A DNA stretch of 64,000 nucleotides, from assembly GCA_965153455.1 (NCBI GenBank), contig OZ234493.1, positions 12,948,213 to 13,012,212 on the forward strand. Direction: 5' to 3'. The notes under the pieces were generated by a model that saw nothing but the letters and a program-made list of their open reading frames with translations, searched no databases and was not told where the DNA came from. Positions 11,527 to 58,659 of this stretch are shown piece by piece; positions within the stretch are counted from its first letter, which is position 1, and each line of letters opens with the position of its first letter. Origin of the DNA: Sphagnum compactum. Taxonomy: Eukaryota. A program made the position numbers and the translations under genes.

Positions 11527-11649
11527 ACACTAGGGTTGTTAATTATAGTTCTTGTGCAACCTTTTTATAATTACTTTTAGTATATAAATATTGGACATAT
11601 ATGTGAAATTTCTTATACCATATTTTTTGTGATTTCTTATTTTTTGATG

Positions 11650-19281: not shown

Positions 19282-22200
19282 TGATATGAACAACTACAAC
19301 TTATTGTGATAGATGAAATATCATTTGTTGGTGTTAGAATGTTGAATGTTATAAATAATAGGTTAAGGTCCATAAAACATATTCAAAATAAATTCTTCAA
19401 TGGTGTGGATGTTATCATGATAGGTGATTTTTATTAAACACCCCTTATGAAAGATAGTTGGATCTTTCAAAATATCAAAAATAATGTTAATGCATTAGCA
19501 CCAACTTTTTGGCAAACATATGTCCAATGTTATGAGTTAAATAAAGTTATGCGACAATTTGATATGGTTTTCATATATTTTTTGAACAAACTTTGCACTG
19601 CAACAAAAAAAGAAAAAGATATTCAATTTATAAATTCAATTTGTAATCGACAATCACCCAACAATTTTACTATTCCATATTTATTTTATACAAATAAACT
19701 TGTGCAAAAACACAATGAACATGTGTTCATTAGTACATTATGTCCCACATTTATTTTCGAAACAATGAAAATTAATCATCAATCATGCCCACCATCCTAC
19801 AAACTTTCAAATGATTTAAATAAACTACAGGTTTGCATTTTACAATTTAAATAAAAAAATATGTCGGTTGAATTATGTGCTAATAACTATGTAATGTATG
19901 ATGGTTTTATGAATGGAGTTAATGGTATTTTTAAAGCATCAACAACACATTGTGACAAAACCTGATCATATAAATAATGTTTTAAAATTTTAAAATTGGA
20001 ACATTGACAAAAAAAAATTCATTATTACAACGACAACATTGAATCAAAATCAACACCAATTGAACTTATTATCAAAGTTATAAGAGTTGATAAATCTCAA
20101 TCATTTATCATAATAAGGATTCAATTTTCAATTTAACTTGTAGCAAAAGGAACCATCCATCGTTCTCAAATATTATCATTAGATGAATTGACTTTTGATC
20201 CTACTAATGTTAAAAAACATGGGTTAACATATACATCATTATCCTATATCCGATTATTATTATTATTATTATTTTTGGTTAACTCCTTTCCAACATGAAA
20301 ATTTCTATGTGGATCCAAGAGTGCATATAAAAATGAATAGATCAAAAACAATAGTGACTTGGATACCATTAATTCTACAATTAAGAAACTTCCATAATGT
20401 TCATGTAATTATACAAGCCTTGAATATAACTTCTTTACGCTAACATTATGAAAACATCAACAATGATCATAACCTTCAAATGTCTCATATTTTATGTCTT
20501 ATAGAAACAAAAATACACCATGCATCAATAGATGTGCACAAATTTATAAATTCATCAAAATATTCATATGTTTCAATCCATGATGATCATGGGTTAATGA
20601 TGATGTATGACGTACACATGCATTTATAAATTTTAATACAATAACTAATGATGATTCAAAATATATAGTAGCAACTTTTAATATTAATACACGAAAAAAA
20701 TACATATTGTATGCATGTATAAAGTTTATTCAGGATTAGTTTCTACATTCCTAAACAAGCTTCAAATTATAATTCAACATCCTCCCAAACATTGTCCAAT
20801 CATCATAATGGGAGATTTTAATGTCAACATTCTAAAAGAAAATAACCATGGAAAAAAAAACAAGAATTATTAGATTTCATGGATAAGTTTAAATTCAAAT
20901 CACAATTTAGCGAAAACACCACAAAAGTTAGATATCAACTAAACCAAATATGGGCAAAGATCCTTGGAAATGAATGTAAATATGGTGTAATAGAAGCATA
21001 TTGGCCAAATTTTCACAAACTAATTTATATTGCATTCAAATTACCAAACACACTTCCTATGTATAACAAAAAATCATTATCACTTGCATTTTTTAAAAGT
21101 GCAGTGTATGAATGTTGCATTTTCCATCTAATTAATTACACCCAAAATGGTGGCACCTTGTGGCCTAAATTTATATATTTTTATTAGTTTTCATAGACCA
21201 TGTGCAAACAAAAATTCATAATTATCAACCATAAGATGAAAAAAAATTTGAATGTTTTTTTATTCACATGTACACCCATCAAACGCAACAACAAAACACC
21301 TTTCATGGAAATCCTAGAGCCAAAATATGACAACAAAAATCTAAAAGTGAAATGAAACTAAAAACTAAGTGGATAAAATTTTCAATTATTTTCATCTAAA
21401 TTATATCCATTCATTACTAATGTTTGAAATCATGGTAAAATGTACAATTAAAAGTACTCGCCAATATACTTGTTAAGTGAACAAAAAGTAGGACCAAAAC
21501 CCATCCCAAAATTGTTATATAATCAATATTTTTAGTTGAATGATAAATAACAAGATACTTCTTCATTAATTTTTAAATTTTGCATTGTAAAAGTAGGTTT
21601 CAAGTAGACTTTTCTGAATTCAAATAACTTTTAAAACCTACTTTTTGCAGCGTAAAATTTGATTCAAGTATTTGTCAAGTATATTTTACCAAAAAGAAAG
21701 TAGATTTGTTTTTTAGTGAGGCCCTTGAATATACAATGATCTTAATGCTATAATTTCATTAAATTTTCTGCTAAAAAAATAGGTTTGAACACCATATTGA
21801 TCAGCCAATTTCAAACCTACTTATTCCTACTTTTATTATTCCAAAGTTTTTGAAAATTTGTAGTTGATTTACAGTAAACCCAATCGAAGGCTCAATAGTT
21901 TCAAATTGAAATTTAAGTAAAATTTGAATTTACTTTCTTACGTTTTCATGAAAAACTACCTCTTTTTTAACTTGATTGTTTTTGGGCAACTTTTTCTATA
22001 TATTTTACCATGCTTTCACCCTTATGCACATTATGAGAAATTGTTTACACTTTTTGGGGGGAGAATTTGGATTGAATTTTGACACAATATTGTTATTTAC
22101 AACTTTCTATTCATTTGTATGGTTAAAGGAAAAGCAATGGAACCATGGTTGGAATTTTCAAGTACATGCACAATGAATTTTAAGAGGGCTAAATTTTATA

Positions 22201-33490: not shown

Positions 33491-34776
33491 ATGGCCCAAG
33501 ATGATACAATACTTATGTTTGCAATTTTTTTGGTGTTCTTTGCCAACATGCATCCCCCAAAGCTTATTCGAATCCTCCCCATGCTAGTGGTGAATCAAGA
33601 AAAGTTTTTATTGGAATGGTTCATGCCATACTTTCTATTGTTTACTTGGAGAAACAAAGTAAAGAATAGGATGTTGTGGGTTGAACCTCAAATACATTTT
33701 GATGTTATTGAAGGCGATGCCTGGCATTGTACACCAAAAATGCTTGATAGGAAATACCTTCAATTTTATAAGATGACATTCTTAGCATTTGAGTATTTAT
33801 TAAAAGAGTTGACATCATTTGCAACTTAATTTGTTAGAACACCTATCCCTTTCAGAAAAGCTGTGAAAATGGTTTTATATCGATTAACACATGGAATTTC
33901 TCTTGAGAGAATGAATGCATTGTACGATGTAGGTGCATCTACAATTAGGAAATATACCTACATTGTATGTGATGTTTTGTCTAATGGTGACAAGTTGTTT
34001 TCAGTTTATGTTCACACTTTTACTGGACATCCATTGCTCAACATCGTTGAACAATTTTGTGACATCACAAGGCTGCAACAAATTTGTGGTGTGATTGATG
34101 GTGCACACATTCCTTTAAGTGTGAAACCAAATCAACAAATCACATCTTTTGCTGTAAATTTTTATAATAGGAAGCGCTTTCACAGTATAATGTTTCAAGT
34201 TGTGTGTGATTGTGATATGTTTTTTTGGATTGCATGTGTTGGTCAACTAGGTGGAGTGGCAGACGAAGGAAAATTCAAAATGTCAAGTTTGTATCGTTCT
34301 TTTCAATCAAGACGGATTTGTAAGAACTAGTTGTTACTATTGAAGGTGTGTAAATTCAACCTTACCTACTTGGGGATGCAACATATCCTTTTCAACCATA
34401 TTTATTGAAAGGTTACAAACCTCGAAATAGTGATATGGTAGATCAAATCCAATTTGATCAATCTATGAACAAAGGTCATGTTTTGATTAAGAATGCATTT
34501 GGAACTTTAAGAATCGATGGAGGATTTTCAAAAATTTTAATGCTCGTGTTAATTGAACCCCTATGATTACTTTGGCATGTTGTACCTTGCATAAGTTTTT
34601 TCAATTGCAAGGTATGCCAAAATTGGTGGTTCATGATGTACAAGGAAATCCTTTTGTGGGTTTTGCTAGTATGCATATATCAGTTCCATGAGAATGTGAA
34701 AGAGCTAAGGCTACTGGTGAGGAAATGCGAAAATGCATTATTTAAATTTTGGATACAACGTAATCCTAGAAAGTAG
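33491..34776 (+). pseudogene. PIF/Harbinger DDE transposase (HARBI1-like), disrupted
   Basis: YLQFYKMTFLAFEYLLKEL...KMVLYRLTHG...GASTI...ICGVIDGAHIP...YNRKRFHSIMFQVVCD...LLGDATYP...NAFGTL, with internal stops and frameshifts. Confidence 0.85.
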
Positions 34777-35872: not shown

Positions 35873-36619
35873 GTTGAGAAAAGAAGAAGAATTGTGTTTA
35901 AGAAGGACTGTGTTTAAAGAAGAACTGTGTTTAAGGAAGGACACAATTTTTATTTTTATTTTTTGAGGTTGTGGGCATGTGAGTTAGCATTACTATTTTT
36001 TGGATTGTGGGTCTTCTGTGCTAGTAGAAGTTTTTTTCTTACAGGATCGGCGGGCTGCAGCAATTTTTGAATAGGACAGTTTGGCAAGAAGAAGCTGAGC
36101 GGACGAGCTGAGCGGAGCGGATGTGCAAGACGGCTTGCACTTCGGCCTCTGAGTGGAGCGAAAGAACGACTGTCAGGGCCACTTTTTGTTGCTGAGCGGA
36201 CGAAATTGTGTGCATGTGCGCAGGCCTTCTCTCTCTCAGCGCAAGAAATGAACATGAAAACATAGCGCGCTCTCTCTCTCTCTCTCAGAGCAAGAAAGTC
36301 TGGATTCTGGACAAGAAAACATAGTTTGGCTGTCTTCAGATATGAATTATCTCTTGCAACCTTTGCCGCTGTCATAATTGTTTGTGTTTTTCCTTTTACA
36401 ACCGTTGGCGTTTCTTCTTCATCTTCTTCTTCCCGTTGAACAGCACAAAGGCGACCGCCGCTGATTACTGGAAGAAGGAGGAATCGTGACAAGGAATTTG
36501 TAAAGTGGATTTTTTTTGGGGAAGAGAACGAACATTCCTCGCAGGATCAGCTTGAGGTATGAATTGCTCACAGTAGATTCATGTCCTAGGTGACGACGAC
36601 ATTACTGTTTTCTTCGGCA

Positions 36620-37330
36620 ACAAGATTGCGAGACTGTCTCACTGAGCAAGATGGTGATGATAATGATCTGTGCGATTGTTCTGGGGAAATTCAGAGCTTG
36701 AATTTGTAGAATTGCGCTTCCAGTTCATATTCTTCCTCATCTTCTTCTCTGACAAGATTGCGAGACTGACGATCTTCGATCATATTGCCGCAGCAGGATG
36801 ATGATAATGAACATCTGTGCGATTGTTTTGGAGAATTCAAAGTAGAATAGCAAGCTTCCCGTTCATATCCTTCCTCGTTTTCTTTCTCTGAAGATTACTC
36901 TGAACAAAGAAGATTGCGAGACTGACGATCTTCGATCATATTGCTGTAGCAAGATGATGACGATGATCTCTGCGATTGTTCTGGAGAATTCAGAGCTTGA
37001 ACTAGTAGAATAGCGCTTCCCGTACGTATTCTTCCTCATTTTCTTTTCTCTGACGATTACTCTTACAAGATTGCGAGACTGACGACCTTCGATCATATTT
37101 CCGCAGCAAGATGATCATCATTTTCTTTCTCTGAAGATTATCCTGAAAAATTGCGAGGCCGACAATCTTCGATCATGTTGCCGCAGCAAGATGGTGATGA
37201 TAATGATCTGTGCGATTGTTCTGGGGAATCCAGAGCTTGAATGAGTAGAATAGCAAACTTCCCGTTCGTATTCGTCATCATTTTCTTTCTTTGAAGATGA
37301 TTCTGACGATCTCCGAGATTGCGAGATCTT
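36620..37330. repeat. ~130-160-bp tandem array (about 5 units) upstream of duplicated gene copy 1
   Basis: GATTGCGAGACTG recurs at ~36624, 36756, 36912 and 37069, with variants at ~37150 and ~37317. TGCGATTGTT(C/T)TGG...AATTCAGAGCTTGAA also recurs. Confidence 0.85.
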
Positions 37331-37560
37331 GGATCCTCCTCGCATTATATCATCGTTTGTTTCGGAATACTCTGTGCAATAGCGGCCAAGAAACATTTCG
37401 TTCTTTGGTAGCAAACGCAGAGATAGCAGCTCTCATGCACACAGTAGTGCAGTTGTGATTCTGCTGCAAACACACACACACAAACCAGCGCTCGCTCTTC
37501 TTGCCCGTTGTAAGTACCTTTCTCCTAACTTCGCGTGTGCATATGTGGGAGAGACAGAAG

Positions 37561-40500
37561 ATGGATGCGAATTTTCAAAAGAGTGTCGAGAATGAACTGG
37601 CGATACTGGATTATGACGCCGATCTTCATGAGCAAATCGTGCCGGTGCTGTGGGACGGAGATCTTTCTGCAACTTTGCGATTTTGCGAGGCAGGATTGGA
37701 GCAAGTCTTGTTTCCGAGTTCATTTGGTCATGTGCTATCTGCAGCTGCAGCTATTCTCAAATCCAAAGCACCAGATGAGAAACAAAAAGCGCAAATAACA
37801 AAGCTATGTTGCCCTGGTCTTTCAATTGCAATCGACAAATGCTTGAATAGCAATCTCGTTGCAGCATGGAGCGAAGATGTTCACATATGCATTTTCCAAG
37901 CTCTGGTCGGTCTCCGGGAACTGGGAGCCGCGATCTTGTCGCAGTTGCCCAATCCGAACGGGCCGCCCCTGGATGCAGTCTGTTTGCTAGAGATCATGAA
38001 GGCATTGGCCGTCTTTGTCGATGATGAGAACAAGTACCACGAGATGTACAGCGAAAGAGGAGCAGCCGCCTTCAAATCATGGAACGTTCCCTGTCAGACT
38101 GAAGAAGCTGCACTGAAGAAATCGTTTGAGAGAATCCACATGAAGTTGTTGAAATCGATGTTACTCACACCATCGTTTTGGCACAAAGTAGTAGATCATT
38201 TCACCAAGCATCTGGAGCAGGGCGCTCCAGCACCAGCTGTGAGGTATTGTCCTATTGTTCCAGGCTCTTCCGATTCTCCTGAACTACAGCATCTATGCAA
38301 ATGACACATTTTTAGAATAGATCCTGATTATGAGAAGACGAAATCTGCCGGAAGAGCTTTGTTGAGCAAGCCGAAAATAAAAGACTTGATCGCAGCTAAC
38401 TGATTCCTTTTCTAACTGTGCTTTGCTTTCAGGGGGGCAAAGAGGTCTTTATTTCAGTTGTTGGACCAAGACAAGGAGATAATATCTGGCATTATTCAAA
38501 CGATGGGTGCTGTTGTCAGTATGGAGCATGTACAGGAGGCAATGATCTCTCCCCTTGAATGTTTTGCTGCATTTTGTAATTGGGTTGTTATTGCTCACTT
38601 GCTGTTGAACTTTTGTTGCCCACTGCATAACAGATGTCTAAATGAGCCAAAGACAGTTCACAATCTAGAGAAAGCAAATTTGATAACTCTAGGTAGGTCC
38701 TTCTTTCTATCAGATTTGACCACCAAAGAGTTGGACATAGTACAATGAGTGTGTCTGTCACTTGATCTCATTCTGGACTATTGGACAATAGGTCCTTCTC
38801 AGGATTTCTTTTCTTTTGTATGTAAGCAGGTTGGCAAGCTTTTCAGGATGTTGATCAAGGAGAGAAAGCTCTTACAGGAGCACATAGCTGCTCTTTGGGA
38901 TGCTGAGACAGCAAGTGCTGCATTTGAGATGGTAATGCAAGGAGACCCAATCAACAAGTGGGAGTCAGATTTATGCCATTGTATAATGAAACTGTGCAAG
39001 TTATGAGCTCATGTGCTTACATATTGTTGTGGATTTTTGGTTGCAGCTCAGAGTTGATGTGCTTGGTTGTCTTCTAGACACCCCAATGTGCTTGATTCCC
39101 AATCCACAAATTCTTGCTTTTGGGGAGTGGTTGGGCAAACTTCAGGTACTTCTTCAGCAAGATTCCATTTTGTTACAACATCTTGTGGGCTTGAGACTTT
39201 GACAATCTAGTGTTGTCGATTTGGGTTAACTTTGCTATTAGTGTTCAAAACAGGGTATACCTGTTGGTGAAGAATTGAAGATACTGTCCTTGATAAAGAA
39301 GCTTGCTGTAATTGACGAAAAAGGAGTGATGGGACACAGGTATGTATATTCAGAGATTGAAGGTCATTGTGGTCCGTAGTAGGTTCAAAGTTTACATGTG
39401 AATGGTCTTGAGTTCAATGACATGTTTTAAATGTGTACACAAAGATGGATTTCTGAGGGATGGCAACCCCTTTACATTTGTAGCTTGATTGATCATTAGA
39501 TAGTTAACTGAGATGCCAAGACTTTTGGATTTGAGCTTTTCTCCATCCAATTGTCTTATTTCACTTGATTTGGTTGATCTAGAATGGACAGCAGCCATTC
39601 AGCCATTCATTATCCATCACATTTCAACCTTTCCTGCTCAGTTTGTGGCAATTGTGTGATTGGCAGGGTGTTTGAGCTCTACTGGAAGCATTCTGCATCA
39701 TTGCCCATGATGACTATCATGGAAGGATTCAAGGACCTTGTTCAGCACTCCAAGTGTGTGGATGATACATCACATAAGGTAAGTCAGTTGCTCCTGAGTC
39801 TCCGGCACTTCAAACATTAATATTTGGACCTGTTCTTGTCCACTTCTTCTACATTCTCTACCAAATTGCACATCTTCATGCCAGCTTGCTCATTGCAGGA
39901 TGGAGAGCATGAGTTTGACATTATGAAAAATGGGAAAGGAAGATTGATGGAGGATCTTAAGAAGGCAGACACTGGAGGGTCTGTCAATGGTTACACCCTC
40001 AATATGTGTGATTCAGATGTATGTAGACTCTAGACTCCCTTAATAAACTGGAGGTCCTGTTTTTTTCTTCTCTATTATAGGTGTTACTTAACACTTCATA
40101 TACTATTAGAGTTCATAGTCAGAAAAAATCGTATATTTTCACTTCTAGCTGCTCATGTTAACCCTCTTGCACACTAGGTGACACAAAAACTGCACACATT
40201 GTGGCTCTATGCTGCATACTAATGAAACCATTAGGAAGTTCAGGGGTTTTCTATGCCACCCAGGTTGAAAAATGTTCAACTTTGCTCTTTTCCTTACACT
40301 TCTATTGAGCCATGTTTATTTCAGAAGGACAAACTACGGGAACAGGAAAAGTTTGTTTTTATTGAGAAATGCAACAAAAGGCTGCACAAATTCCTGGAGT
40401 ACAGGCTTCCAGTGATGCGCAGTGATATTGGTTGGGAGAGCATGCATCGAGCGGAACTGATTCAAGCTTTGCAGACTGGTGTACAAGGGGACCACTCAGT

Positions 40501-41580
40501 TGCAAGGTGTCTTTGAGTAGTCCTTCCTTTCTCCAATTTCTGTGTTCATTGGTTTTTTACTTTGGAGATGCAATTGATCACCATACTGGATTCAGTTCTT
40601 CCTGCCTTCTTACTTTTAGTGTAAAGTCTGCCCACCATGTTGATGTGGCTTGGCTATGTTTTGTGCAGACTGAAAATGATGGAGGAGCTGGAGTTGAAGA
40701 CCCTGAAGACCTTAAATTGTGAGAGCATTTCTCACTTGCAGATTGATAAGAAGCTTATTGAACTGAGCATGCAACAAAAGATACTCTTCTCTGAGCTTAA
40801 CGACAGACACCATAGAGAAAAGATGCAGGTACCATTCATTATCTTGAGTAGATTTGAGTAGATTGTCAGGTTTTTGCTTGAGTTTGGTTTGCACAAGCAT
40901 ATTCAGGTATCTGCTGCTGATGTGAATGAATTACATCCAAAGCTATGCGAACCAAACCATTTGCAAGCCTCAATATAATCCAGGTTTGAATGGCCATGAC
41001 ATTTTTCATGCAGTTCTTTGAAGACTGTCAAACAGACAGGGAGAACATTGTGAAGGAGGTTTTGTACAAGAAAGCCAGGGTGTTGGCATGTGTGGAGGAG
41101 GGAAAGAAACCCATAGATGAATCACTATCAAAGTACTTACGCACAGCTATTGGCCTTCTGAAGGAGGTATTTCACACATTCTAGTTTGTCCCTTTCCCAC
41201 CTTGGCAACCATGTGTGACTTTCGCATCTTCTCTATATCCTACCACTTATCCCTCATTCTGATCATTTTCCTCTGGATATTTGAGTTCTGGGATAGTGTG
41301 CTCACCAGCAGGTGGTCTAAACGTATTGCAGGAGAAGGAAAAGCAGAGGTTACTACTCCAAAAGTTGGAAGAAGCCAAGGAGAATATGCCCAGCTCCCAG
41401 TGTTCAGTGTGCATGCTTGGATGGACTACTCGAATACGAGCATGTTTGCACCCATGCGGCCATGCGAGTGTATGTTTCCCTTGTGCAGAATACTGGTGGA
41501 GGAGTAAAGGACGATGTCCAATATGCAACTCACACCTCTCTGCAAAGCCAGTAATGCTTCCCCATCAGTTGTTCATCTGA
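37561..41580 (+). CDS. ~683-aa protein: USP9/USP24 (Fat facets)-like N-terminal helical region, coiled coil, C-terminal C3HC4 RING finger (copy 1)
   Basis: Exons 37561-38243, 38433-38538, 38830-38931, 39047-39145, 39254-39339, 39667-39778, 39899-40018, 40325-40506, 40669-40828, 41014-41166, 41332-41580 sum to 2052 nt in one open frame. RING: CSVCMLGWTTRIRACLHPCGHASVCFPCAEYWWRSKGRCPIC. Alternative in-frame ATG at 37543. Exon structure is mirrored in copy 2. Confidence 0.8.
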
Positions 41581-44445
41581 GAGTGATCAACAGTACTGAT
41601 GGATAGAAGTCTGTAGAAGTGAGTTGGAGGTTCAAGATGTAGGCTCCTGTGAATGGATTGTGTGTCATATCTGATACAGGACCTGGGAGACTCAAGCAGG
41701 TGTCCAAGTCAGCAGTACTAGGGGGGCATATGTGTATAGTGTATACCACACTGTGTCATCATGACTTGCAGGAGTTTTACTTGACTTGGGGCAGAGGGTC
41801 TACATCACCAATAATGGAGGCTAAAGCAAATTTTGCTGGATGCTATAGAAAAACCACTTACCTGATTACATACAGAATATCAGACAGGTATTTTCCCAGC
41901 ATTCAGTACAGCTTATCCTGAAGTTCACTGAAGGAACCAGGAGCTGCAGTTTCTTCTGCTGGTGCATCTACTATGATCAAACTGATATGCAATTACTACT
42001 CTTGATTGACAATATACGGGCTGAGGGAGATTCTGGAGACAGGGAGTATGACAACAAAGCAGCACATGGGTGTCAAGTCTTCTTGTGAGGCTGGACATGG
42101 AATGTTGTTGGAAGTGGAGTTCCTAGATTTCATGTTTTTGGTCTTGCAGCCAACAGGATTTTGCAGGAACCAATTGCATGCATCTCTACAATTCATTGTA
42201 TCTCTCACCCTTGTTTAGTCTCTGGTGGTATGATTATCCAGCACTCTACAGAAGTGTATGTATTAGATTTGGCATGTGGAAGATCTGATGAATCAGTTCT
42301 GGGGTTTGATCCTTGGTGGGTTGCAGGGTGATTCAAAAGTTGGGAAAGGAGCACAAAAGAGAGAACTGCTGTTGGAAGTTGATGAAGTCACCAGCAAATG
42401 TTAAGGTAATTAGCCACCACTACAAATCCAATTTCTTTTGTCCAGTTTGAGTCTATTGCAACAATCATTTAGCAGAGGTGGGGGGAACCTTTGAGGAAGT
42501 CTTGTTGTTGTTGTTGGATCCAGATGGAAAGTCCCAATTCTCAAGTTCCATGTCTTTGCATTTGTTACATACGTTGGGTATCATGGATCCTTATATACTA
42601 GCTCTGTATAAGTCATGACTCATGACCCAAACCTCAATGGGCATTCCCAAAATGGCAAGGATGAGGAAGTAGTAAAATCTAGCACCGCATGTTGTCAATT
42701 CAAATGTCCCTCACCTGTTGGCTTTGCCCATTGTGAAGTGAGGGGAAGTTACCAGTTTCAAATGTTATGAACATAAATACTTCAATTGGGTTAATGCAAA
42801 AAATCAACTAAACTCGAGAAGAAATTGGGGACAATTAAGAAGGTTAGTAAACAAGGAAATCAAATAAATGAGACCATTAGGGAACTTAGTAAAAAGCTTG
42901 GGAAAAGGAAATTGGAAGGTCAATTGATCACAAATTCAGAAATAACCAGTCTAAGGGTTGGGGTCGAACTATGATTATTGTGTTCAACCAAATGCCCTTG
43001 GGTGCAATAATGCAAAGCCTTCAAGGTTGTGGGCAATATGTGACAATTCAAAAAAAAAGCTCAACAATTTGTCACACAAACAACAAGCTTAATGTACAAA
43101 ATCTCACAATTTTCTTAAAGAATATGAAGCAAGTACCATAAAAAGTTATATAAGGAACATATTTTGGAAACACTCCATGATTTTAACTTTTCAACTTTGG
43201 AGTCACTATTGAATCACCCCAAGTTTGTCAAATGATATCGATGGTTAAAAATTTCCTTGTGGACTAATTTAACAACACATTAATAGAAACCCAAGGCACA
43301 TTTTTTAGCATGTAACCCAAAAAAAAAAAAGTGTGTGAGAACTTAAATTAAATTTACTTTTGACCTTAGCTATTGACATGACTCATCTAAAACCTATAAC
43401 ATTACACCCTAAACCCTAAACTTGGGCTTTTTTATCACAAATATTCAAGCCTAATGAAAGGTTTTGTTCATCAAAGTACAAGTGTGATGTTAAAGTTTTG
43501 CTAAACTTCAATCCTAATGTACACAATTGCAGTTTGTGAATGGGGTCATGATTTCTTGTGTTGTTTGGCATTGTTAACCAACGTTTTGATATGCAATTCA
43601 AAACACTCTATGAAGGAATCATATACTAGTTACAAAACCTCTTACTTAACATTGGTGTCAACCATCTCTCTCCAATTCCTATATACTTGTGATAATCTTG
43701 GAGTAAATCTTGTGTGCTAGTACATTGAAAAAACGATTATGTTTCATAATATGTATCCACGGTAGAATAATATGTAATATAGTCTTCCAAACTAGAAGAT
43801 TACGTGTTAGAAAATGGTTGGGACATGTTTTGTTTTCACATTCCCATGTTCCAATGACATTCTCTTTTGATGGTCCCATGGCAATCTCTTGTTGTTCCCA
43901 TGTAGTTCCCCATGGTCATTTCATGGTAGGTCATTTCAATTTTGCCAAAGATATATGATTTACACAATAGAGGGAGGTGCTCCAATCAAGGTGTAATGTT
44001 TGGGAACCTAAAGGGCAAAACCCAAGGTCCAAGGAAGAGTGGGAAATTATGCCTCGTAAAGTGACTCAAGCTTGGCAAGCCGAGTATTCCATCCATCCGT
44101 AATCATCCCTCATGAAAATCTTGATGTTCTAATTGGCTCTCAGGTGGCAAGTTACAACCCCTAGTAGTTTTTGACCTCCATTTCATTAATGACCTACCAG
44201 TTACCACAAGGTACCACCCTCGGCTCTCATTGGTCGAATGACTTTTGTAACCCTTGGCCACTTGGATGAAAATTTCGTATTCGCTATTTACATGGATGAA
44301 AAGGATGGCATCTTGATTCTCATGAGGGATGGTAGTGTCCAAAGCTAAGGTATCAATTTCTTGTAACCAATGACTTTGAGCCCCTCACCTAGTCCATAAT
44401 ACATACTATAAACTACGGCCCTAACTATGAAGATTTCGACTATGC

Positions 44446-45170
44446 GTGTTTGGATGAAGATTTTGTAACCGGTTTTTTCATGGATGAAAAGCAGGGCATC
44501 TCAACCCTAAAACCCTAAAAAAACCCATTCTCACAAGGGATGGTTTATATCCGGTAACCGGCTTCAGGGTGTTTGGATGAAGATCTTGTAACTGTTTTTT
44601 GCACGGATGAAAAGGAGGGCGTCTCAACCCTAAAACCCTAAACCCATTCTCACAAGGGATGGTTTATATCCGGGTAACCGGCTTGAGGGTGTTTGGATGA
44701 AGTTTTGTAACTGTTTTTTTGCATGGATGAAAAGGAGGGCATCTCAACCCTAAAACCCTAAACCCATTCTCACAAGGGATGGTTTATATCCGGGTAACTG
44801 GCTCGAGGGTGTTTGGATGAAGAGTTTGTAACTGTTTATTGCATGGATGAAAAGAAGGGCATCTCAAACCCTAAAACCCTAAGCCCATTGTCACAAGGGA
44901 TGGGTTATATCCAGTAACGGGCTTGAGGGTGTTTGGATGAAGATTTTGTAACTGTTTTTTGCACGGATGAAAAGGAGGGCATCTTAACCCTAAAACCGTA
45001 AACCCATTCTCACAAGGGATGGTTTATATCCGGTAACCGGCTTGAGGGTATTTGGATGAAGATTTTGTAACTGTTTTTTGCATGGATGAAAAGAAGGACA
45101 TCTCAACCCTAAAACCCTAAGCCCATTCTCACAAGGGATGGTTTATGTTCCGGTAACCGGCTTGAGGTTG
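44446..45170. repeat. ~120-bp tandem array, 6 units, each with an AACCCTAAAACCCTAA telomere-like core
   Basis: Units start G(T/G)GTGTTTGGATGAAG at ~44446, 44567, 44687, 44807, 44927 and 45046. An inverted GGTTACCGGAAATA / TATTTCCGGTAACC pair follows (45173-45210). A single diverged relative lies at ~44260-44410. Confidence 0.92.
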
Positions 45171-46026
45171 TTGGTTACCGGAAATACCTTGGGCACTATT
45201 TCCGGTAACCAACTACCTCTCGCCGGTTACCTAGTCCATAATACATACTGTAGAATACGACCGTAACTACGCTACTGTACGACGTTCCTACGGAGCGTAG
45301 GGCTCTAGTGCTTTTCACTTTTGCGCTGGGCGGCTGCTCGGAGGGTCGAAGCTCCGAAACCCGCACTTCACAAGCCATTGAAAAGCGAGCCGGATTCAAT
45401 TAAGTTAACTCTTTGCAGTAGCTGCTGAAGTGCTCGAACTTCATAATCTCATCTTCATCATCTTCTTGTTCTTTTTCTCGGCTGAGCAACAACAACAACA
45501 ACAAGACCCTGACCGCCGCTCCTCACTCGAACAGGAATAGCGATGAGGAATTCGTGAAGTCGGAACAGATCAACAAACCTTCGCAAAGACTGACTTACAT
45601 CTTGAGGTCTGAATTCTTTCCTACTGTCCTACGTAGCCCCTGCATTGTTCTTTTCACCGGTGACAAAGATAGTTTTGCGAGACCAGGACGATCTTCTTCT
45701 TTTTCGATAATAGAATTTGCACAGTGCCATGATGATGACCTTGTTTGTGGTATTGTTAGATGCGGAATTTAGAGCTTGAAATCGAATAAGAATTTCCTTT
45801 CGTAATCTTCGTACTCGTTTTCTTTCTCGATTATGAAGCTAGACTGGCGATCTCCGAGATTAGGATCTTGGATCGATCGTTACAGAATATGTTCCTTTGT
45901 GTTCTAGTCTGTGCAATAGCGAGCAAGAAATATGTTGTTGCTTATGCGGTTTTTTTTGGTAGCAGATGATTGCAGGGATAGAGCTCTCATGAATGGAGAC
46001 AGTGTAGTTGCTATTCTGCACACATC

Positions 46027-49000
46027 ATGCGTGGGAGATCCGAGACGCCGATGGATGGAAGCTCCCGGAAGCGTGTAAAAATGGAACAGGACATTCAGGA
46101 TCCCGATGCTGATCTCCAAGCGCAAACAATGCCCGTGCTGGCGCGGTCCGACGACGGAGACCTTTCTGCTGCGTTGCGATTTTGCCATGCAGAGTTGCAG
46201 GAGGAAGGAGTCTCGTTTCCGAGTTCGTTTGGTCGTATGCTGTCTGCAGCTGCAGCGATGGTGAAATCGAAAGCCGCAAATGAGAAACAAAAAGCTCACT
46301 TATCAAAGTTGTGTTGTCCTGGTCTTTCCATTGCGATGGACAAAGTCTTGAACAGCGATGTCCTCGCCGCATGGAACGAAGACGTTCATGCATGTATTTT
46401 CGAATCACTGGTTGGTCTCCGGAAATTGGGGTCGGCAATCTTGTCGCAGCTGCCGAGTCCCTACCCTCCGCCGCTGGATGCAGTCTGTTTGCTAGAGATC
46501 ATGAAGGCATTGGCCGTCTTTGTCGACGATGAGAACAAATATCACGAGATGTTCAGCGCCGGAAGAGGTGGCACTGGTGCGGCATATAAACCATGGAAAG
46601 CTCCGTCTCAGACTGAAGAAGTTGCTCTGAAGAAATCATTTGAGAAAATCCACAGGAAGTTGTTGAAATCAATGTTACTCACACCGTCCTTTTGGTCCCA
46701 AGGAGTGACCCATTTTGTCAGGCATCTGGAACAGGGTGAGCCAGCACCAGCTGTGAGGTAGGTATTGTCTGAGACTCCTCCAATTTATATCTGGATAAGA
46801 GCAGTCTATGCACCTTGATGAAACATGTTTGAGCATTTTCTTCTGTACTATATGCAGTGGATTTCTTCAGCCATGATCATGACACTGAGCTGAGGAAAAA
46901 AAAAATTTGCCAAAAGAAATTTGTTTCAGAGCAACCCAAAAACACATGTGGTCAGATGAGCTAACTGTTTCCTTTCTGACTGTGCTTTCTTTCAGGGGAG
47001 CAAGGAGGTCTTTATTTCAATTGCTTGAACAAGACAAGAATATAATATCCAGCATCATTCAAATGATCAGTGATGCTGTCAGTATGGAGCATGTACAGGA
47101 GGCAATGATCTCTCCCCCTGAATGTTTTGTTGCATTCTTCAAGGGATTATTATTGCTCACTGGGTGTCGAGCTTTGTTGCCCACTGCATGCTAAATGTGT
47201 TTGATTGAGCCTAGAGAAATATTCACAATCTCGAAAGAAAGCTAATTTGGTAGTCCTCTAGAAAGTTTCTTTGTTTCTCTCAGGTGTTACCAAAGAATCA
47301 GGCTTATTGCAATTAGTCAGGCTTGCAAAGAGTACTAGGGTTCTGCCATTCGATTCTTTATTCACAGAATCCAGTTAGGTCACATCCTGGACTATTTTGA
47401 CACCTTTTTCATGATTCACATTGTGTTTTGTATGACTTTGCAGGTTGGTAGATTTTTCAGGATCTTGATCAAGGAGAGTAAGCTATTGGAGGAGCATGTT
47501 ACTGCTCTTTGGGATGCTGAAGAAGCAAGTACTGCATTTGAGATGGTAATGCAAGATGACCCAATGAAAGGATCAATTCTACACCATTGAATATGTAATG
47601 CAAGGTTGTGAGTGCATGTGCTTATATTGTTATGTGATTTTGGCTGCAGCTCAGAGTTGATATACTTTGTTGTCTTCTAGACACTGAATGGTCAATTCCA
47701 GATGATTCTGAATGCTCAATTCTTGAATTTGCGGAGTGGGTGGACAACCTTCAGGTGATTGAGCAAAACTCAAATTTTTTAAGTACATCTCCCTCTTGAG
47801 AGTGCAACAGTGTTGTCAGTGCCTGTTAACTTTGCTCTCATGAAACAGGGTATACCTGTTGGTGAAGAATTGAAGATACTGTCATTGATAAAGAAGCTGG
47901 CTATAATTGACAAAACGGGTGTGATGGGACAAAGCAGGTATGTGTATTCAGAGATTGTATGACATTTTGCTCAGTAGTTGAAAAGCTTATCTTCGAAATG
48001 GACTTGAATAATTTGATGAGATGCTTTAGATGTACACAAAGATGAATTTCTCAGGGGAGATTCCTCTGAAGGTATCTTAGGGGTTCACATGCTAGTACCT
48101 TAAGGTTTTTAGCCTGTATTTGCATTACATAGTCAACAGAGATGCAAAGAATTTTGGATTTGAGTTTCTCTCCATCCAATTGTCTTAATCCTCTTGTTTT
48201 GATTGATCTAGAATGAAAAGCAGCCATTCTCTTTTGCATCCAGCTTTTGTCGTACATCAGATTTTGAGCTTTTCTGCTCAGTTTGTGGCAGTTGTGTGAT
48301 TGGCAGGGTGTTTCAGCTTTGCTGGAAGCATTCTGTCTCATTGCCAATGACAACTATCATGGAAGGATTCAAAGAGATTTTTCAGCACTGCAAGTCTATG
48401 GATGATACATTGCACAAGGTCAGTTGCTTATGATCTCTGGCACCACATATATTTTACTCAGGCCTGTTCTCATCCACTTTTTCTGCATTCTGTATCAAAT
48501 TGCACATCATCATGCCATCTTGCTCATTGCAGGATGGAGAGCTTGAGTTTGACATTATGAAAAATGGCGAAGGAAGTGTGATGGAGATTCTTAAGAAGGC
48601 AGACACTGGAGGGTCTGTTAACAGTTACACTCTGAATATGTGTGAGACAGATGTATGTACTCCCTTAATTGTTGTAGGGTGTTTTCCATGCAATAAACTG
48701 GAGTTTCTGATTTTTTCTTCTCTACTATAGGTGTCAGTTAAAACATTTAGTACAGTATTAGAATTCTTGGTAAAAAAGAATTGTGGGTTTCACCTTTGCC
48801 TCTAGCAGCTCATGTTGACCCTGTTCCTTGCCAAGTTGAGCAAAACCACTCATGTGGCTCTGTGGCCCAGTACTTTAAGTGAAACCCCCGGGAAGTTCAG
48901 GGGCTTTCAGGGGCTTTCTATGCCACTTGTTGTTGGTAGGTTGGAAAGTGTTTCCTCTTTCCTTATAATTTTATTGTTCAAATTATGCTTGTTTCAGAAG

Positions 49001-50150
49001 GACAAACTGTGGGAGGAGGAAAAAAATGTCTTTTTTGAGAAATGCAACAAAAGGCTGAACAAATTCCTAGAGTACAGGCTTCCAGTGACCCGCAGTGATA
49101 TTGGTTGGGAGAGCCTGCATCGAGCAAAACTGGTTCAGGCTTTGCAGACTGGTGTACAAGCAGACCTCTCAGCTGCAAGGTGTCTTGAGCATACCTTCCT
49201 TTGTCAGTTTTCTTAAATCTTTGGACATTCAATTGATCATCGAACTGGATTTAGTGCTTATTGCCTGTTTACTTTATGAATCAGGACACTTCAGTGAGCC
49301 TGATGGGTCCCTGGCAATGTTGACGGGGCATTGTTGTCTTTTGTGCAGACTGGAAGTCATGGAGAAGCTTGAGTTGAAGACCTTGAACACTTTAAATTGT
49401 GAGAGCATTTCTCACTTGCAGGTTGATAACAAGCTTAATGAGCTGAGCAAGCAACAAAAGATACTATTTTCTGAGCTAAATGACAAACAACATAGAGAAA
49501 TGATGCAGGTATCACTTGTCATTTTGAGTTATTTGTTTGGGTTTTGCTTGAGTTTTGTTTGTACATACATATTTTCATATCTGCTGCCCATGTGAATACA
49601 TTGCATCCAGAGCTGAGAGAACCAGATCATTCTGCAAGCCTCTACATAATCCAGGTATCAATGGGCATGCCATTGAATATGCAGTTCTTTGAAGACTGCC
49701 AGATGAACAGGGAGAACATTGTGAAAGAGGTTTTGTATAAGAAAGCCAGGGTGCTGGCATGTGTGGAGGAGGGAAAGAAACCTGTAGATGAATCACTATC
49801 AAAGTATTTACACACAGCTGTTGGCCTTCTGAAGGAGGTATGTGACATATTCTAGTTTGGCCCTTTCCCACCCTTGGCAAGCAGTTGTCTTCAGAATCTC
49901 TTTTTAAGATTGTTCTGTTTATCCCCCCATTCTGATCATTTGCCTCTAGATGTTTGAGTTTTTGAAATCATGCTCATTAACAGTTGGTCTGAACATATTA
50001 CAGGACAAGGAAAAGCAGAAAATACTACTTCAAAAGTTGGAAGAGGCCAACGAGTGTATGTTATCCTTGTGCAGAATATTGGTGGAGGAGGAAGAGACGA
50101 TGTCCAATATGCAATTCACCCCTCTCTACAAAGCCAATAATGCTTCCTAA
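46027..50150 (+). CDS. Paralog (copy 2) of the USP9/24-like-N-terminus protein; RING destroyed by a frameshifting deletion in the last exon
   Basis: All 11 exons are colinear with copy 1, with conserved splice sites and only frame-preserving indels in exons 1-10. The last exon (from 50004) lacks the 86 nt equivalent to 41379-41464 and ends ...EEANECMLSLCRIL...NNAS* at 50150. Confidence 0.72.
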
Positions 50151-51200: not shown

Positions 51201-52601
51201 TTTTAATTAACTACAATTCAATGTACATCAATTCTTTGATGCGGTTTATCCATATTTCATATCAACTTTCATCCAACCTTGACAAAATAACAAATATGTA
51301 TAATTTATTGTACTTATAGGTGAAAGCATATTACATTGTTCATAAAATGTTGTTACAAAGCAATTTTTACAAGATTTTGAGATTTATAACTGGCAATGTG
51401 ATTAAATAGAAGTGATTAAGCTGATAAAATACTCAACAAGACAATGTTATATAAATTGTAATCACATTGTATGATTTTTTTGATTAATTTTTGAATTATC
51501 ATAACATAATAGACTTTTTAAGAAATATTCAAAAACCTCTAACAATTCATAATAAATGAATATGGATTTCATGCACTTTATTATAAATTTTTTATTGAAT
51601 AAAAAGTCAATGATAATATGATGTGATGACATTGATATTAAGGAAGACTTTTTGAAAGGATTTTGATGATGAAATTTTTCTATGTACTTTGAATTATGGT
51701 TTTTTTTCTCATTAGGTCCTTTCTTTATTGAAAGTAATAAATTAGAAGTTCATAGTTCATATTCAAGTTGTCCAAGGTAAACTAGGGTTGGAATTTTTTT
51801 ATAATGAATTTCAAATCATAATTTGCAAAATGATTTGTGTGACTCAAGGTATCTTGCCATCACACTATCCTTGTAGTGTTAATTTAGGCAATTATGGATT
51901 TCCATATGTGCTTAAAACAATTACACCTTAATGTGTTTTCACCCATATAACCAAGTATGTTATTGAATTAACTATAACCATAAAGTTAGGGTTTGAATGG
52001 CCTTTTAATCCATTAGTTTTTTTGTGAACCTTAAAATCACAATGTTCCTTAATTTGCCATTGTATGACAAAGTGAAAAAAACAAGGGCATTCTGACATTG
52101 TGACATATATGCAATATCTCTTTTTTATTAATAGTTGAAGATTTAAGTTGTGGGATCATTGATTTTGTCCTCAACATTACTTTCTATAATGCAAATACAA
52201 GTTTTTATTTCGCCTTCTATAACCTTGTGTTGTTGTTGCTAGAGTTTATAATGCAACACTGGTACAAACTATTTTTTTATGGTTGCATTTATTTGTTAAA
52301 ATTGTAGTTCTTATTGGCAACACTAACCTTGGGGGCTTTTGAAGAATGGAAACCACCTTTGAAACATTCACCATAAAAGAAACAATCTAGCACCTCCAAG
52401 GATGATAGAACTATAACATACTCCATAAATTTGATCTTCTTGACAACATGAAATTAATTCTTCTGACTTAATCCTTTGAACTTCTTTATTAAAAATTAAC
52501 ACTAACATTGCCCATTCTAATTGTGTACACATATTCTTGCGAATAGTATAAATGAGATAGGCACAAGAGAATTGATCAAATGCAACTTTATTGTAATATC
52601 A

Positions 52602-54200
52602 TTAATTCTGACATGTTTTAGCAGATGCCAATAAACATTGAACCATGTCCCAATTCCACATGGGATAGTGAATGAACTTTTTTGTTTGCCCACAATACAT
52701 TATGTTTTGTAAGATATGATACATGTGTTTACATTCCACCCATGCCTCACACCCACCCAAAGAAGCTGCCAACATGACAACAAAATATATGCATGAACAA
52801 CTTAAGTAATTTTCAACTATCACATCAAAACGTTTGTTGCCAAATAGTATGTTGTAGATTCGTCCATACCTTGAAAGCTAGACATCTACAAAAGGTAAGA
52901 CATCGATCATAGGGATGAATAATTTATCAACCTCGCAGTTGTTGGTGTGTTGTTGTGTTAATCTAAATGTTAAAACTATTTTCACCTTTTTGCAACAACA
53001 AGATGTAGGCCAATTGCTTGTATTTGCAAGCCTAAATAAATTTGTGTGCAAATAGAAGGCGCTTGGCAATTACTTGTAATAGAAGGCTCACCTCTAAATA
53101 GACTCCAAAGATACATTGTTCCTACATTCAGAGTCAAATAAAAACCCAACCTTTTCTAGAGATGATACGTCTTTCTAAATAAGGTTGACATTATGTTAAA
53201 CCAACATATAGTCGAAACTTGCAGCTTAGCAATGACAAACTTTCGTGTAAACCCACCCACACAATGGTTGAAATCATCAAGATAGAACTAGTGCTTGTGG
53301 TGCTCGAAAGCCCCAAATCAAAATTGAACCCAAAAAGCATAATAACATGGAGCTTAGCAATAACACATTTGTCACAAGTTTGGTAACATCCCCCAACATA
53401 TGGGCCTTCCTCAATAGGAGTTCATTCCTATCAAGACCATGTTCAGATGGACCTCCTCATAAATAATGTTGGTACAAGGTGGACTATTTAAAAGCTCAAA
53501 CATAGTCGTCGCATGTTGTTATGTACAAGGAGGTGCCATGTTTCCTTGACTGTTACAACCATATGTTATGCATAGTCTCAATAAGATTGCAAGTCAACAT
53601 GTTTACCCATTTGATGTTATTAAACTTCTACAAATACCATGAAGACAAAATTAAACCAAAAGTAGAGGGACATAGAGGATAGAAAAAAATCACTCTATTT
53701 AATGTGGGAAAAAAATTCTTACATGAGCCATGAACCCCAGCGCCTTAACTATTTGTCACAAAAATGCCATAAGCTAAGCCAATTACCAAGTTCATGAACT
53801 CCATATTCACATGTAATGCTAGACGAAAGCCACCAATAATGAATAGTTGCATATTGAATGTCCACCTCTTCTAAAGACTCAACATTTTTATATTTGTAGC
53901 AAAGGGCTTTGAATTGATCCTAAAGCTTGGGTTTGATTAGTTGTTTGGTATGGTCATCAAATGATTGAATCCAATGGAACAAACATGTTTGCTTTCTGTC
54001 AGCCATCCTGACACTTGCATCCCCAAAACCATAAACTATTATAACATTCCAATTTGCTTGGGCATTATCCACCCTACATCCATGAAGGTTCTTTTCTAGA
54101 ATGTAACTTTGGAATTACATGTAATTATGCAACATGGACCAACCAACATGAAACTTTAAAATATTCAACCTTTGGATTACAATTTTTATACAATTCATCG
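52602..54200 (-). pseudogene. MULE/Mutator-like transposase remnant with C-terminal SWIM zinc finger
   Basis: KQTCLFHWIQSF (CxxH, ~53990-53960); TCNLIETMHNIWL (catalytic-E region, ~53600-53560); CSCIYF...ECKHMYHIL (SWIM, 52800-52710). Stops present. Confidence 0.6.
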
Positions 54201-55619
54201 AATATCTCATGAAATTTTGAAAATTCTTTTCATCCAATTGTAAAATTAATTTCCATTAAATTTGATAAGAAGTTAAAGGTACTATGGACCACGATTCATT
54301 TTTGGAGAACATCGAAATTTTTTCATTTTAGTTATTGATGTTTTCAACTTGCCATAAGGTGTAGAACCATTATGCAATGTGGCAATGTTGGATTTGATGC
54401 AACCCACCTTTCAAGGTCATGTAACTAAGTTTTCAATTCTTTATTTTATGATTTAAAATGTTGATAACAAATTCAAAACCAAGCAAGCAAATGACAATTG
54501 TCATATCAATTGGTTGCTGTAAACCAATTGAACTATACGAAGCTACAAAAGTCATAATCAAATTTCCCCTTTCATTGAATACATCATCCTACAATATAAT
54601 ATTAATCGAAATTTTCATAGTTTCAAAAAAATTCAAATTTTCATGGTTATAGAAATCCCAAATTTATAACCATAAAATTTGGAGGCTATTGATTTTAATG
54701 TAATGGTATGAAAGTTTTGTTTGTATTTACTATGATAATATATGGGCAATGGTTTCTCTTTTCTTAAACTTGATTTCTTAATGAAAAAAAATTGAACATG
54801 TTTTTACTTGTATGTTAGCAAAATATTAAGTGGGGACAAAAACCATCTATTACAATTGTACATTGGACTCACAATGGTGACCATTGAGGACCTTTTTCTT
54901 CTTCTTTTTAAAATACATAACAATCTAAACCTTCCTCATTATCAAATAAGAGAAAATACTCTTCACATATTTAAAGACTTGGAGATATTTAAATACAAAC
55001 ATACAATCATCATATTAAAACATAATATAACTAAAATTCACACAAATAAATGGAAATGTGACAAGTAATTGGGTTTGTCGTAATGATTACTTACCATAAC
55101 ATTCTAAAAGTGACTTCATCAACTCCTATCTATTGGTTTTTTTTTTTGTGCTACTTTCTCACTATTGAAGTTTATAACCCACAAAATATCAAACCCACCC
55201 ATGATTAACTCCTTAGAATTTTTTTGGAATATTTTCCCAAATAATTACAAAAATAATGGTGATACTTAAACAACCCATGCAAGGTAGCAATATGTATAAA
55301 CAAACATACACTAATCTATGTACAACCAACAAGCTTAAAAACTAATAACTAATTAGCAAATATTTGCATGGTTACCTTAATTGCATGTAACTCCTTAAGG
55401 TTAAACACCAAAATAAGATCTATCACATGTAATTTTTGAAAGTAAAATACTAATACCCTCCTTTATATTCATTAATCTCTTATGATCCTACTTGAACATC
55501 AATAAAAATATCGGTGAACACATGTGTGTTTTGATGGCAGCCTTGTGATCCTCTTTCATTGGATAGAAAGGTAGCCTTGCTTAATTCTCCTATCTATTTG
55601 ACATTTATTTAAATTTAGA

Positions 55620-56690
55620 GAAGATTTGAATTCCCATATTTTCTCTAAAACACAAAAACTTATTTTAGCCTAGAGTAATTTTGTTAAAATGTCAGTTATT
55701 TGATCATTTCTGGCCACATAATTTAATTTAATTTCTTTTGAAATATTTTGTTTTCTACCGTAATGGTAACATACCTTAACATATTTGGTGCAAATGTGAT
55801 AAATCGGGTTCTTCACAATCTGCATAAAACTTTGGTTGTCAACATATAATGAAGTAGGTAGTTGAAACACATTAAGTTCTGTAAGGAACATTCTTATCCA
55901 TGTTGCCTCTTTAGCATCCTTAAATGTTGTTTGATATTTCACTATAGTTGAATGCAATAATTGGTTATTTTCTAAACACCAAGTTATGAGGCTTCTTCCA
56001 AGCTTGAATAGATAACCTGATGTAAATTTCAATCATCATTATCACCAACCCAATCTACATCAATAAACCTTTGAACTTCATTTTCATCCCCATGTTAGTA
56101 AAAGATACCATAATCCTAAATACCTTTAAGACACTTCAAAATATGATGGGCCTTTTCCAAATGTGTATTTTTGGGCATGTTCATATATTTGCCAAATATC
56201 CTCATTGAGTAAGTGAGATTAAGATGACAGTTAGTAAGGTAAACCAACTTGCTAATTTAGCGATACAAGATCGAATTAACATCTTCCTATATTCATCCTT
56301 TCCAAACTTGGCATTTTCTAAAAGGGGTGTGGGCACTAGGTTATGATTGGTCATCTAAAATTAGTCAAAAATGTTTGCAACATAAGCATGTTGACACATA
56401 AGTATGCATGTTGATAAATACAAAAATTCTACACCTACAAAAAGCTTTAAAAGTCCACGCTCAATCATTTCAAATTGAAAAAGTAATTCATTTCTCAACC
56501 AATGAATTTTCTTGATGTGGTTTTTTGTAATTAGAAGATCATCCGCATAAAGCACCGTGATGAACATTTTTCATCTTCAAGTAAATATTACAAGTTGTGA
56601 TCAACATCATTTTTGGTCAAGCCCTGGTTTTGCATGTATTAGTTCATTTTCTTGTACCAAGCTTTTGTAAATTGTATAAGGCTTTATATT
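55620..56690 (-). mobile_element. Ty1/Copia reverse transcriptase - RNase H remnant
   Basis: KALYNLQK, VLYADDLLIT (YxDD), FEMIERGLLKLFVGVE, TSGYLFKLG...ITW, LYVDNQS...NPIYH..TKYVKVCYH, QITDILTKLL. Degenerate. Confidence 0.85.
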
Positions 56691-57299
56691 GTGCATTAAT
56701 TTTTTATTTTCAATTAGTTTTTGTCTATTTGTTTGAAATGCAAATATGTTCAAAATCTATTTTTTATAACGAAAGATTTGTGTAAAGTATGTGGTAAATA
56801 GGTTTTAACAAATATATTTTTTAGTTTTTTACTATAATCACACTTCAAGGATATAATGATATTTATATCCACAAAAGCAAAAGAAAAACTACATTTTAAA
56901 AGTAAACAAAGAATATCCCCATTTACAAATTTACCACCCAACAAGGGAGGGTATTTTTGGTTTATTTTGAAAATTCATTTCCTCCTAGTTTTTTGGAAGT
57001 AAATTCTTATAGTAATAATAGAGGTGCAAAAAAGTTTTCAATTATATTTCCACCCAGTTTTATGCTACTTGTTCACTTTTATATGCATAATATAATGTAA
57101 AGTTAACAACATTCACTTTTTGTGGCTACTTTACCATGCTTCTACCCACTTATAAAAGAACTCATTTCAGTAGATGAAATAACACCTTTGTACTTATGAC
57201 ATAAACATAATGAGGTGATGGAAATAGTAACCTATTGCAATAGCTCCAAGGTATGAAAATGACATAAAATGGATCTTTGAATGTCAAAAACATCTTTTA

Positions 57300-58560: not shown

Positions 58561-58659
58561 GGAATTATTTTAATGATGGCCATTAATGGACTTTATACAT
58601 GGTTCACCTAATCTAATTCTAACTTGGGCTTCGCATTATCACACAATACCAATGATGAT

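Follow-up and report, generated by a model that had tools for sequence, protein, structure and literature searches.

What would a protein do that begins as a deubiquitinase and ends as a ubiquitin ligase, and how would such a protein come about? The question is posed by a gene of the moss Sphagnum compactum, carried in a window of 64,000 nucleotides (contig OZ234493.1 of assembly GCA_965153455.1, positions 12,948,213 to 13,012,212 of the forward strand), which is the whole stretch of DNA analysed here and to which all positions below refer. At 37561-41580 (+) lie 11 coding exons whose product resembles, in its N-terminal part, the deubiquitinases (DUBs) of the FAF-X/USP9X/USP24 type, and closes with a C3HC4 RING finger. 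E3 ubiquitin ligases and DUBs are usually viewed as distinct enzymes that act against each other on the substrates they have in common. We think it likely that this protein is a RING E3 in which an inherited DUB solenoid forms the substrate- or partner-facing end and an inherited helix-RING-tail cassette the E2-facing end. This reading builds on homology in both halves, on the missing DUB parts, on a spliced frame, transcription and purifying selection, and on a break at the same place in Sphagnum and Ceratodon. Proteins (P0003 and so on) and RNA data sets (X1 to X3) carry our own labels.

The two halves of the protein and the break between them

The window is nuclear DNA. The gene is real, spliced and transcribed, and its reading frame is intact. 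Threading GT..AG introns against P0003, a 688-aa protein of Sphagnum troendelagicum (664 of 689 alignment columns identical between the two), leaves no internal stop in the 11 exons and gives a product of 681 aa, or of 683 aa if intron 2 runs from the GC donor at 38539 to the acceptor at 38829, the choice made in annotated relatives; the nearest annotated proteins are all from Sphagnum. Four RNA runs, including X1, X2, X3 and one poly(A) run, were mapped on 37400-41700. A 393-nt metatranscriptome contig of X1 joins 41164|41330 across intron 10 (GT..AG after a shift of 2), and the RING exon is therefore spliced to exon 10; other joints span introns 3 (38930|39046, X1) and 6 (39776|39897, X1, X2 and X3), and loose ends of RNA contigs match the intron 8 junction, 40506|40669. 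With the Pfam model zf-C3HC4_3 (cut-off 27), exon 11 reaches 36.6 bits and P0003 reaches 31.9. A preliminary description of this DNA, made from its letters alone, had proposed an intact 11-exon frame of ~683 aa ending in a C3HC4 RING with no USP domain, had suggested that splicing into the RING exon be confirmed, and had likened the N-terminus to that of USP9/USP24; the gene model, the RNA and the comparisons that follow bear it out on all of these.

Residues ~42-391 of the window protein are homologous to, and collinear with, residues ~70-570 of FAF-X/USP9X/USP24-type DUBs. A profile of four Sphagnum proteins, searched with HMMER against 1,835,955,588 proteins, returned 50 matches at E<=1e-3. 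Six of these are proteins of 2,032-2,486 aa, from Chara (E 1.9e-18), Selaginella (FAF-X, E 5.7e-18), Prasinococcus, an MMETSP alga and Mesotaenium, together with P0050; two partial Closterium proteins and three Ceratodon purpureus RING proteins follow, the remainder being fragments of the moss family itself and weak RING-only matches. Pfam scanning of 11 of the matches placed PF25010 on all eight DUB-like proteins and UCH on five of the eight, with RING as the sole Pfam match of the three Ceratodon proteins, and among the long matches there was no ARM family other than the FAF-X/USP9X/USP24 type. Word-index searches, too insensitive for DUBs, returned four Sphagnum clusters only.

Pairwise and profile comparisons place the same segment. 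BLASTP aligns P0003 with the Selaginella DUB at 31% identity over 207 aa (E 2e-18; 198-396 vs 371-573) and, collinear with this, at 24% over 123 aa (E 9e-5; 55-173 vs 76-193). When the moss family (9 rows) is set against 16 DUBs, hhalign gives a single match, at 97.7% and E 2.2e-12, covering 342 columns (48-401 vs 68-563). In a sequence search of the PDB (177,635 sequences) human USP9X (7yxx_A) is the best of 62 matches (E 1.5e-6), aligning in two stretches, 76-144 vs 118-186 and 274-414 vs 425-559, and is the sole match without a RING. The preliminary description had set out four blocks of similarity to USP9X: blocks 3 and 4, and block 2 in its first half, are found letter for letter in the alignment with 7yxx_A. 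Block 1 (IVPVLWDGDL) falls outside all significant alignments, and it is Selaginella FAF-X to which the remaining half of block 2 aligns.

The rest of the DUB is missing. UCH (PF00443) was not found on P0003 by Pfam at E<=10, nor were UBL (PF22900) and DUF3517 (PF12030), both of which are present in plant DUBs. Five full-length plant and algal DUBs, compared by tblastn with the whole 64-kb window, gave 35 high-scoring segment pairs at E<=10; the 21 with E<1 all involve DUB residues <=588 and lie on exons 1, 3 and 5 of the gene and of its tandem paralogue (copies A and B; Table 1), with no match beyond residue 588 at E<1 that would mark a remnant of the catalytic domain in the window. About the first 570 of ~2,400 DUB residues are kept, in a Sphagnum version shortened by ~150 residues, and the break falls inside the ARM domain PF25010 (372-776 in Selaginella). 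With catalytic domain, UBL and DUF3517 absent, the protein is, on domain content, not a member of the USP9X/USP24 DUB family. A DUB of the FAF-X/USP9X/USP24 type, such as USP9X or Selaginella P0017/P0063, comprises PF25010 ARM, UBL, PF00443 UCH and PF12030; the N-terminal solenoid is common to it and the moss protein, whereas the moss protein lacks the second half of PF25010, UBL, USP and DUF3517, and has a RING at its end instead. As a side observation, Chara braunii P0016 (2166 aa) has PF25010 without a UCH match, together with DUF659 and a weak match to retrotransposon gag, a combination suggestive of a gene model interrupted by a transposon.

The C-terminal cassette has relatives of its own. 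The moss profile matches P0049 of Adiantum nelumboides (448 aa; hhalign 98.3%, E 2e-14, 38% identity, 112 columns) and P0041, a 578-aa protein from an unnamed transcript (98.4%, E 8.3e-15, 35% identity, 124 columns), and both matches begin at P0003 residues 535-539, taking in part of the long helix, the RING and a K-P/A-x-x-L-P tail. Pfam finds XS and zf-C3HC4_3 on P0041 and RING alone on P0049. These XS-domain-coiled-coil-RING proteins thus match over their last ~150 residues at 35-38% identity, with the RING core R-A-x-L-x-P-C-G-H-A; their N-termini are an XS domain or unassigned, whereas that of the moss protein is a DUB solenoid. The XS domain (PF03468) was not found on P0003 at E<=10, and residues ~402-535 gave no match in any search run. 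Since the helix-RING-tail cassette has its own relatives in XS-domain RING proteins, the moss gene appears to be a chimera of two parents, not the simple exchange of a USP domain for a RING that had been proposed for it: little of the DUB remains, and the break lies within PF25010. To our knowledge the XS-domain-coiled-coil-RING family has been neither described nor studied functionally. A 105-aa protein of Physcomitrium patens, P0033, consists of a coiled coil and a RING with the core R-A-C-x-x-P-C-G-H-A-S-V-C, its last residues being FF; this may be what is left of the family in Physcomitrium, or else a relative that has the RING only.

DUB homology stops within ~5 residues of the exon 6/7 junction, 39778|39899, and for that reason the fusion probably took place at an intron; recombination there would fit the end point of the homology. 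Beyond the junction lies the linker encoded by exon 7, in which A424 and D425 are invariant across the alignment of Sphagnum and Ceratodon. Read as a history, the N-terminal ~350-400 residues would have been copied, and shortened, from the ~570 residues with which a green-lineage DUB begins, the part ahead of its UBL and catalytic domain, and the cassette would come from an unrelated second parent, closest to the plant XS-domain-coiled-coil-RING proteins. The fusion would have arisen once, early in moss ancestry, and an intron was probably its site.

Age of the fusion and fate of the parent enzyme

How old is the fusion, and did its DUB parent survive beside it? From the solenoid's end through to the final residue, an 862-aa Ceratodon protein can be aligned with P0003 (26% identity, 374 aa, E 2e-32). 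Ceratodon alone, set against the DUB profile by hhalign, matches at 94.4% (E 8.4e-8; 51-564 vs 85-563), with its end point as in Sphagnum. The same segment and the same end point imply that the fusion predates the split between Sphagnopsida and Bryopsida. Proteins P0003-P0006 of Sphagnum and P0013/P0056 of Ceratodon thus form a moss solenoid-helix-RING family, recognised by a DUB-derived N-terminus that breaks off at DUB residue ~570, by long helices and by a C-terminal RING followed by the tail KP-x-x-LP-x-x-LF, all of them features of the window protein as well; databases name the relatives 'RING-type domain-containing protein' or not at all. The family is accordingly not restricted to Sphagnum, and the fusion appears, from the proteins compared, to be old and moss-restricted.

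A maximum-likelihood tree of 24 rows and 690 columns, a quick build, agrees with a green-lineage origin. It excludes P0006, P0017 (a shorter form of P0063), P0019 and P0020 (no solenoid), P0072 and most of the animal USP24 rows. The moss RING rows fall within the green-lineage DUB clade (SH-aLRT 100), apart from animal USP24, and outside the clade of vascular-plant DUBs (99).

The preliminary description took the gene for a truncated duplicate and proposed a search for its full-length parent in the same genome and in bryophyte and algal proteomes; the searches described next recovered none from a bryophyte. Residues 100-1050 of the Selaginella DUB, used as query against candidates of 1,117-3,556 aa, gave 27 matches, 14 of them animal USP24 (including P0086, crayfish USP24) and 13 green-lineage or unnamed. 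The named green matches are from Selaginella (two), Diphasiastrum, Taxus, Cryptomeria, Adiantum, Chara and Mesotaenium; none of the 27 is a full-length DUB with a bryophyte name, and none has an angiosperm name. Of the rows without a name, P0065 falls beside the fern in the tree and P0066 beside the gymnosperms; P0069, P0071 and P0072 are without placement. A metagenome scan tied none of 19 loci to moss, a weak result as two peptide patterns only were used; the loci are mostly marine and alga-like, at 30-42% identity, and one, L001, is seed-plant-like, being 96% identical to P0066 and 73% to Taxus. Taken together, the searches suggest that the full-length parent DUB is absent from mosses. As no bryophyte full-length parent DUB was found, it is doubtful that mosses hold a co-resident parent for the RING protein to oppose.

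A more radical history can be imagined, and we hold it to be improbable: the lineage's only FAF-X/USP24-type DUB gene would have been converted, not copied, everything past residue ~570 being replaced at an intron by the cassette of an XS-RING gene, so that the true DUB is now absent from mosses and its solenoid has been switched to adding ubiquitin on the same partners.

Predicted activity and its alternatives

What, then, would the protein do? On the likely reading as a RING E3, the RING would recruit E2~ubiquitin, the DUB-derived solenoid would bring a partner or substrate, and the protein would ubiquitinate whatever the solenoid binds; clients may be shared with the DUB. The ligands of the RING in the exon 11 translation are spaced C-x2-C-x14-C-x-H-x3-C-x2-C-x10-C-x2-C, with all eight in place, and by Pfam criteria the product qualifies as a zf-C3HC4_3-type RING protein. 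Conservation of RING and tail extends from Sphagnum to Ceratodon, and that of the tail pattern KP-x-x-LP-x-x-LF to the XS-RING relatives as well (alignment, hhalign). Some C-terminal RING ligases dimerise through the tail. A predicted complex of two copies of residues 590-688 (P0003 numbering) scored 0.35 against a mark of 0.42, and a homodimer of RING and tail would be a guess from such examples.

Several points weigh against a ligase of this descent. The predicted ligase function would follow from a family name and a ligand pattern; an arginine is common right after the last RING cysteine, a position that matters, and the residue there is N, not R; and some copies of the gene have done without an intact RING, which suggests that the RING is dispensable in them and that selection on it is not absolute. 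As for descent, PF25010 (ARM_UBP24_USP9X-Y) scores 16.6 bits on P0003 (E 0.0044), below its cut-off of 27, USP9X is not among the 50 PDB matches listed by Foldseek, and the moss branches of the tree are very long (2.66 and 4.29), leaving their exact position unsure. Nor is the RNA plentiful: contig depths are 2-5, no single record spans the whole gene, the poly(A) run amounts to four reads, all in the 3' untranslated region (UTR), and the tables of X2 and X3 are identical, perhaps one data set filed twice.

The points concerning the RING would be accommodated if the protein were a non-catalytic scaffold or decoy, whose solenoid and helices bind partners and whose RING is vestigial or regulatory, an explanation that we regard as possible, though not probable. 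An argument for it is copy B, ~4.4 kb downstream of copy A. The RING exon of copy B has an 86-nt deletion between 50050 and 50051 that removes four ligands (C1, C2, C3 and H4) and shifts the frame, yet an open frame of 668 aa remains, equal to an annotated protein; two annotated copy-B proteins, P0004 and P0006, each from a different species, likewise have no intact RING at the end, and in S. troendelagicum copy B (P0005) the RING is kept. Between copies A and B the ratio of non-synonymous to synonymous substitution (Ka/Ks) is 0.30 over the whole length, with 0.31 for the solenoid and 0.28 for the helices (Ks 0.44): both copies have been under purifying, somewhat relaxed selection for most of their history, and a ratio of ~0.3 in solenoid and helices means that the parts outside the RING are constrained, as a scaffold would require. 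The N after the last cysteine may point the same way, given the importance of that position. Against a scaffold, copy A retains all eight ligands, and the conservation of RING and tail across Sphagnum, Ceratodon and the XS-RING relatives argues for a RING in use.

Much less probable is a merger, in the 11-exon model, of two neighbouring genes, one for a solenoid and one for a small RING protein. The lack of any RNA record across the whole gene leaves room for it, as do the RING-only protein of Physcomitrium and the failure of some contigs to splice intron 5; but RNA joints or loose ends cross introns 3, 6, 8 and 10, the frame runs through 11 exons in both tandem copies, and the stretch between the solenoid's end and the RING belongs to a single protein in independent annotations of Ceratodon and of several Sphagnum species. 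The region of intron 5 covered unspliced, 39330-39634, is represented in contigs of X2/X3, which maybe derive from unspliced RNA or carried-over DNA.

The AlphaFold 2 (AF2) model, built from the 9-row alignment (mean predicted local distance difference test, pLDDT, 59.7), shows helical repeats over residues ~40-390 with block means of pLDDT of 58-88, falls to 27-42 over residues 393-479, and has helices at low confidence at 439-466, 473-493, 497-583 and 592-622. Searched against the PDB with Foldseek, one of the checks put forward in the preliminary description, it gave five matches at E<=1e-3, all generic ARM/HEAT solenoids at TM ~0.2, including importin-alpha, beta-catenin, designed ARM proteins and CAND1; the check thus supports an ARM-type solenoid fold in the model without specifying a DUB. 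The ESM Atlas offered no lead for residues 1-420, its best scores (0.79-0.83) falling to unrelated helical families. That the resemblance to USP9X is a generic ARM/HEAT likeness and not common descent is nonetheless the least credible of the alternatives: non-specific Foldseek solenoids, a PF25010 score under the cut-off, Atlas scores of at most 0.83 and an E of 0.16 for window exon 1 alone against the PDB (where USP9X is again the one match) stand against E values of 1.9e-18 and 5.7e-18 in 1.84 billion proteins with long matches all of FAF-X/USP9X/USP24 type, a collinear 342-column hhalign alignment, an independent Ceratodon match to the same segment, and USP9X as the one non-RING match in the PDB.

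Table 1. Features of the gene (copy A) and its tandem paralogue, in window coordinates.
Feature	Position	Strand	Basis or remark
Non-coding first exon (5' UTR), 3' end	36530..36557	+	RNA contig loose ends X1, X2, X3; GT at 36558
5' UTR intron, ~1 kb, GT..AG	36558..37557	+	RNA loose ends
Coding exons 1-6, alpha-solenoid	37561-38243, 38433-38529 (or -38538), 38827 or 38830-38931, 39047-39145, 39254-39339, 39667-39778	+	
Exon 7, low-confidence linker	39899..40018	+	pLDDT; family alignment
Exons 8-10, long predicted helices, coiled-coil-like	40325-40506, 40669-40828, 41014-41166	+	AF2, hhalign
Exon 11, helix end, RING, conserved tail and stop codon	41332..41580	+	
C3HC4 RING	41401..41526	+	Ligands C24, C27, C42, H44, C48, C51, C62, C65 in exon 11 translation
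C-terminal tail NSHLSAKPVMLPHQLFI, 17 residues	41527..41577	+	
Copy B, tandem paralogue, 11 exons	46027..50150	+	Product identical letter for letter to P0004 (668 aa)

Two details of the gene model concern its 5' part. RNA contigs of X1, X2 and X3 have loose ends at 37556 whose letters are identical to 36537-36554. The upstream in-frame ATG of the P0003 model, which would add MWERQK, was rejected as it falls inside the 5' UTR intron, and the start codon is accordingly placed at 37561; the same intron holds tandem repeats at 36747-37193, with units of 80-156 bp and 80-83% matches. For intron 2 a GT donor at 38530 rivals the GC donor at 38539, and the acceptor is an AAG|CAG tandem (38826-38829); every combination of these sites stays in frame, with products of 680-683 aa, the RNA records decide none of them, and the annotated model of copy B has a GC-AG intron 2.

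Between the paralogues, at 44446-45172, lies a satellite array of 5.4 copies of a 120-bp unit (91% matches) that holds the telomere-like CCCTAAAACCCTAAACCC. Pfam matched one of 10 neighbouring open reading frames, leaving no functional context among them: the match, at 33863-34330 (+), is to DDE_Tnp_4 (Harbinger/PIF-type transposase, E 1.4e-6), probably an upstream transposon remnant. The middle of the window, where the genes lie (GC 0.35-0.45), is bordered by long AT-rich blocks at 4001-22000 and 52001-60000 (GC 0.24-0.31).

Related architectures and biological meaning

Is there a known ligase of this design? C-terminal zf-C3HC4_3 RING E3s that carry the RING after a coiled coil (RNF8, BRE1, MDM2, IAPs, MYLIP, Arkadia, RNF38) share the RING subtype, its position and its ligands, whereas their E values in the PDB search, 0.002 to ~1, reflect likeness at the level of the RING alone. 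The plant U-box-ARM (PUB-ARM) E3s share the logic, an E2-binding module combined with an ARM-type solenoid that picks substrates; they differ in having a U-box instead of a RING, the reverse domain order and unrelated ARM repeats. PUB-ARM ligases are absent from the matches of the searches run, none of which was aimed at them. The preliminary description knew of no such architecture, and our search of literature listings likewise found no published description of it or of plant USP9X-like genes.

The weight of the finding is moderate, for it would rest on sequence-level inference in a non-model lineage, is lineage-restricted and concerns a gene of low expression. Its meaning lies in the joining, by recombination, of a DUB targeting end to a ligase module, a combination that at least two moss classes have preserved over hundreds of millions of years. 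The apparent loss of the full-length enzyme from bryophytes, as against its retention in lycophytes, ferns, gymnosperms and streptophyte algae, would, if true, be a lineage-specific rewiring. If the solenoid still binds its ancestral partners, the moss family would be a test, carried out by nature, of turning the action of a ubiquitin enzyme into its opposite, and would help to show what is recognised by the N-terminus of USP9X/USP24, itself poorly understood.

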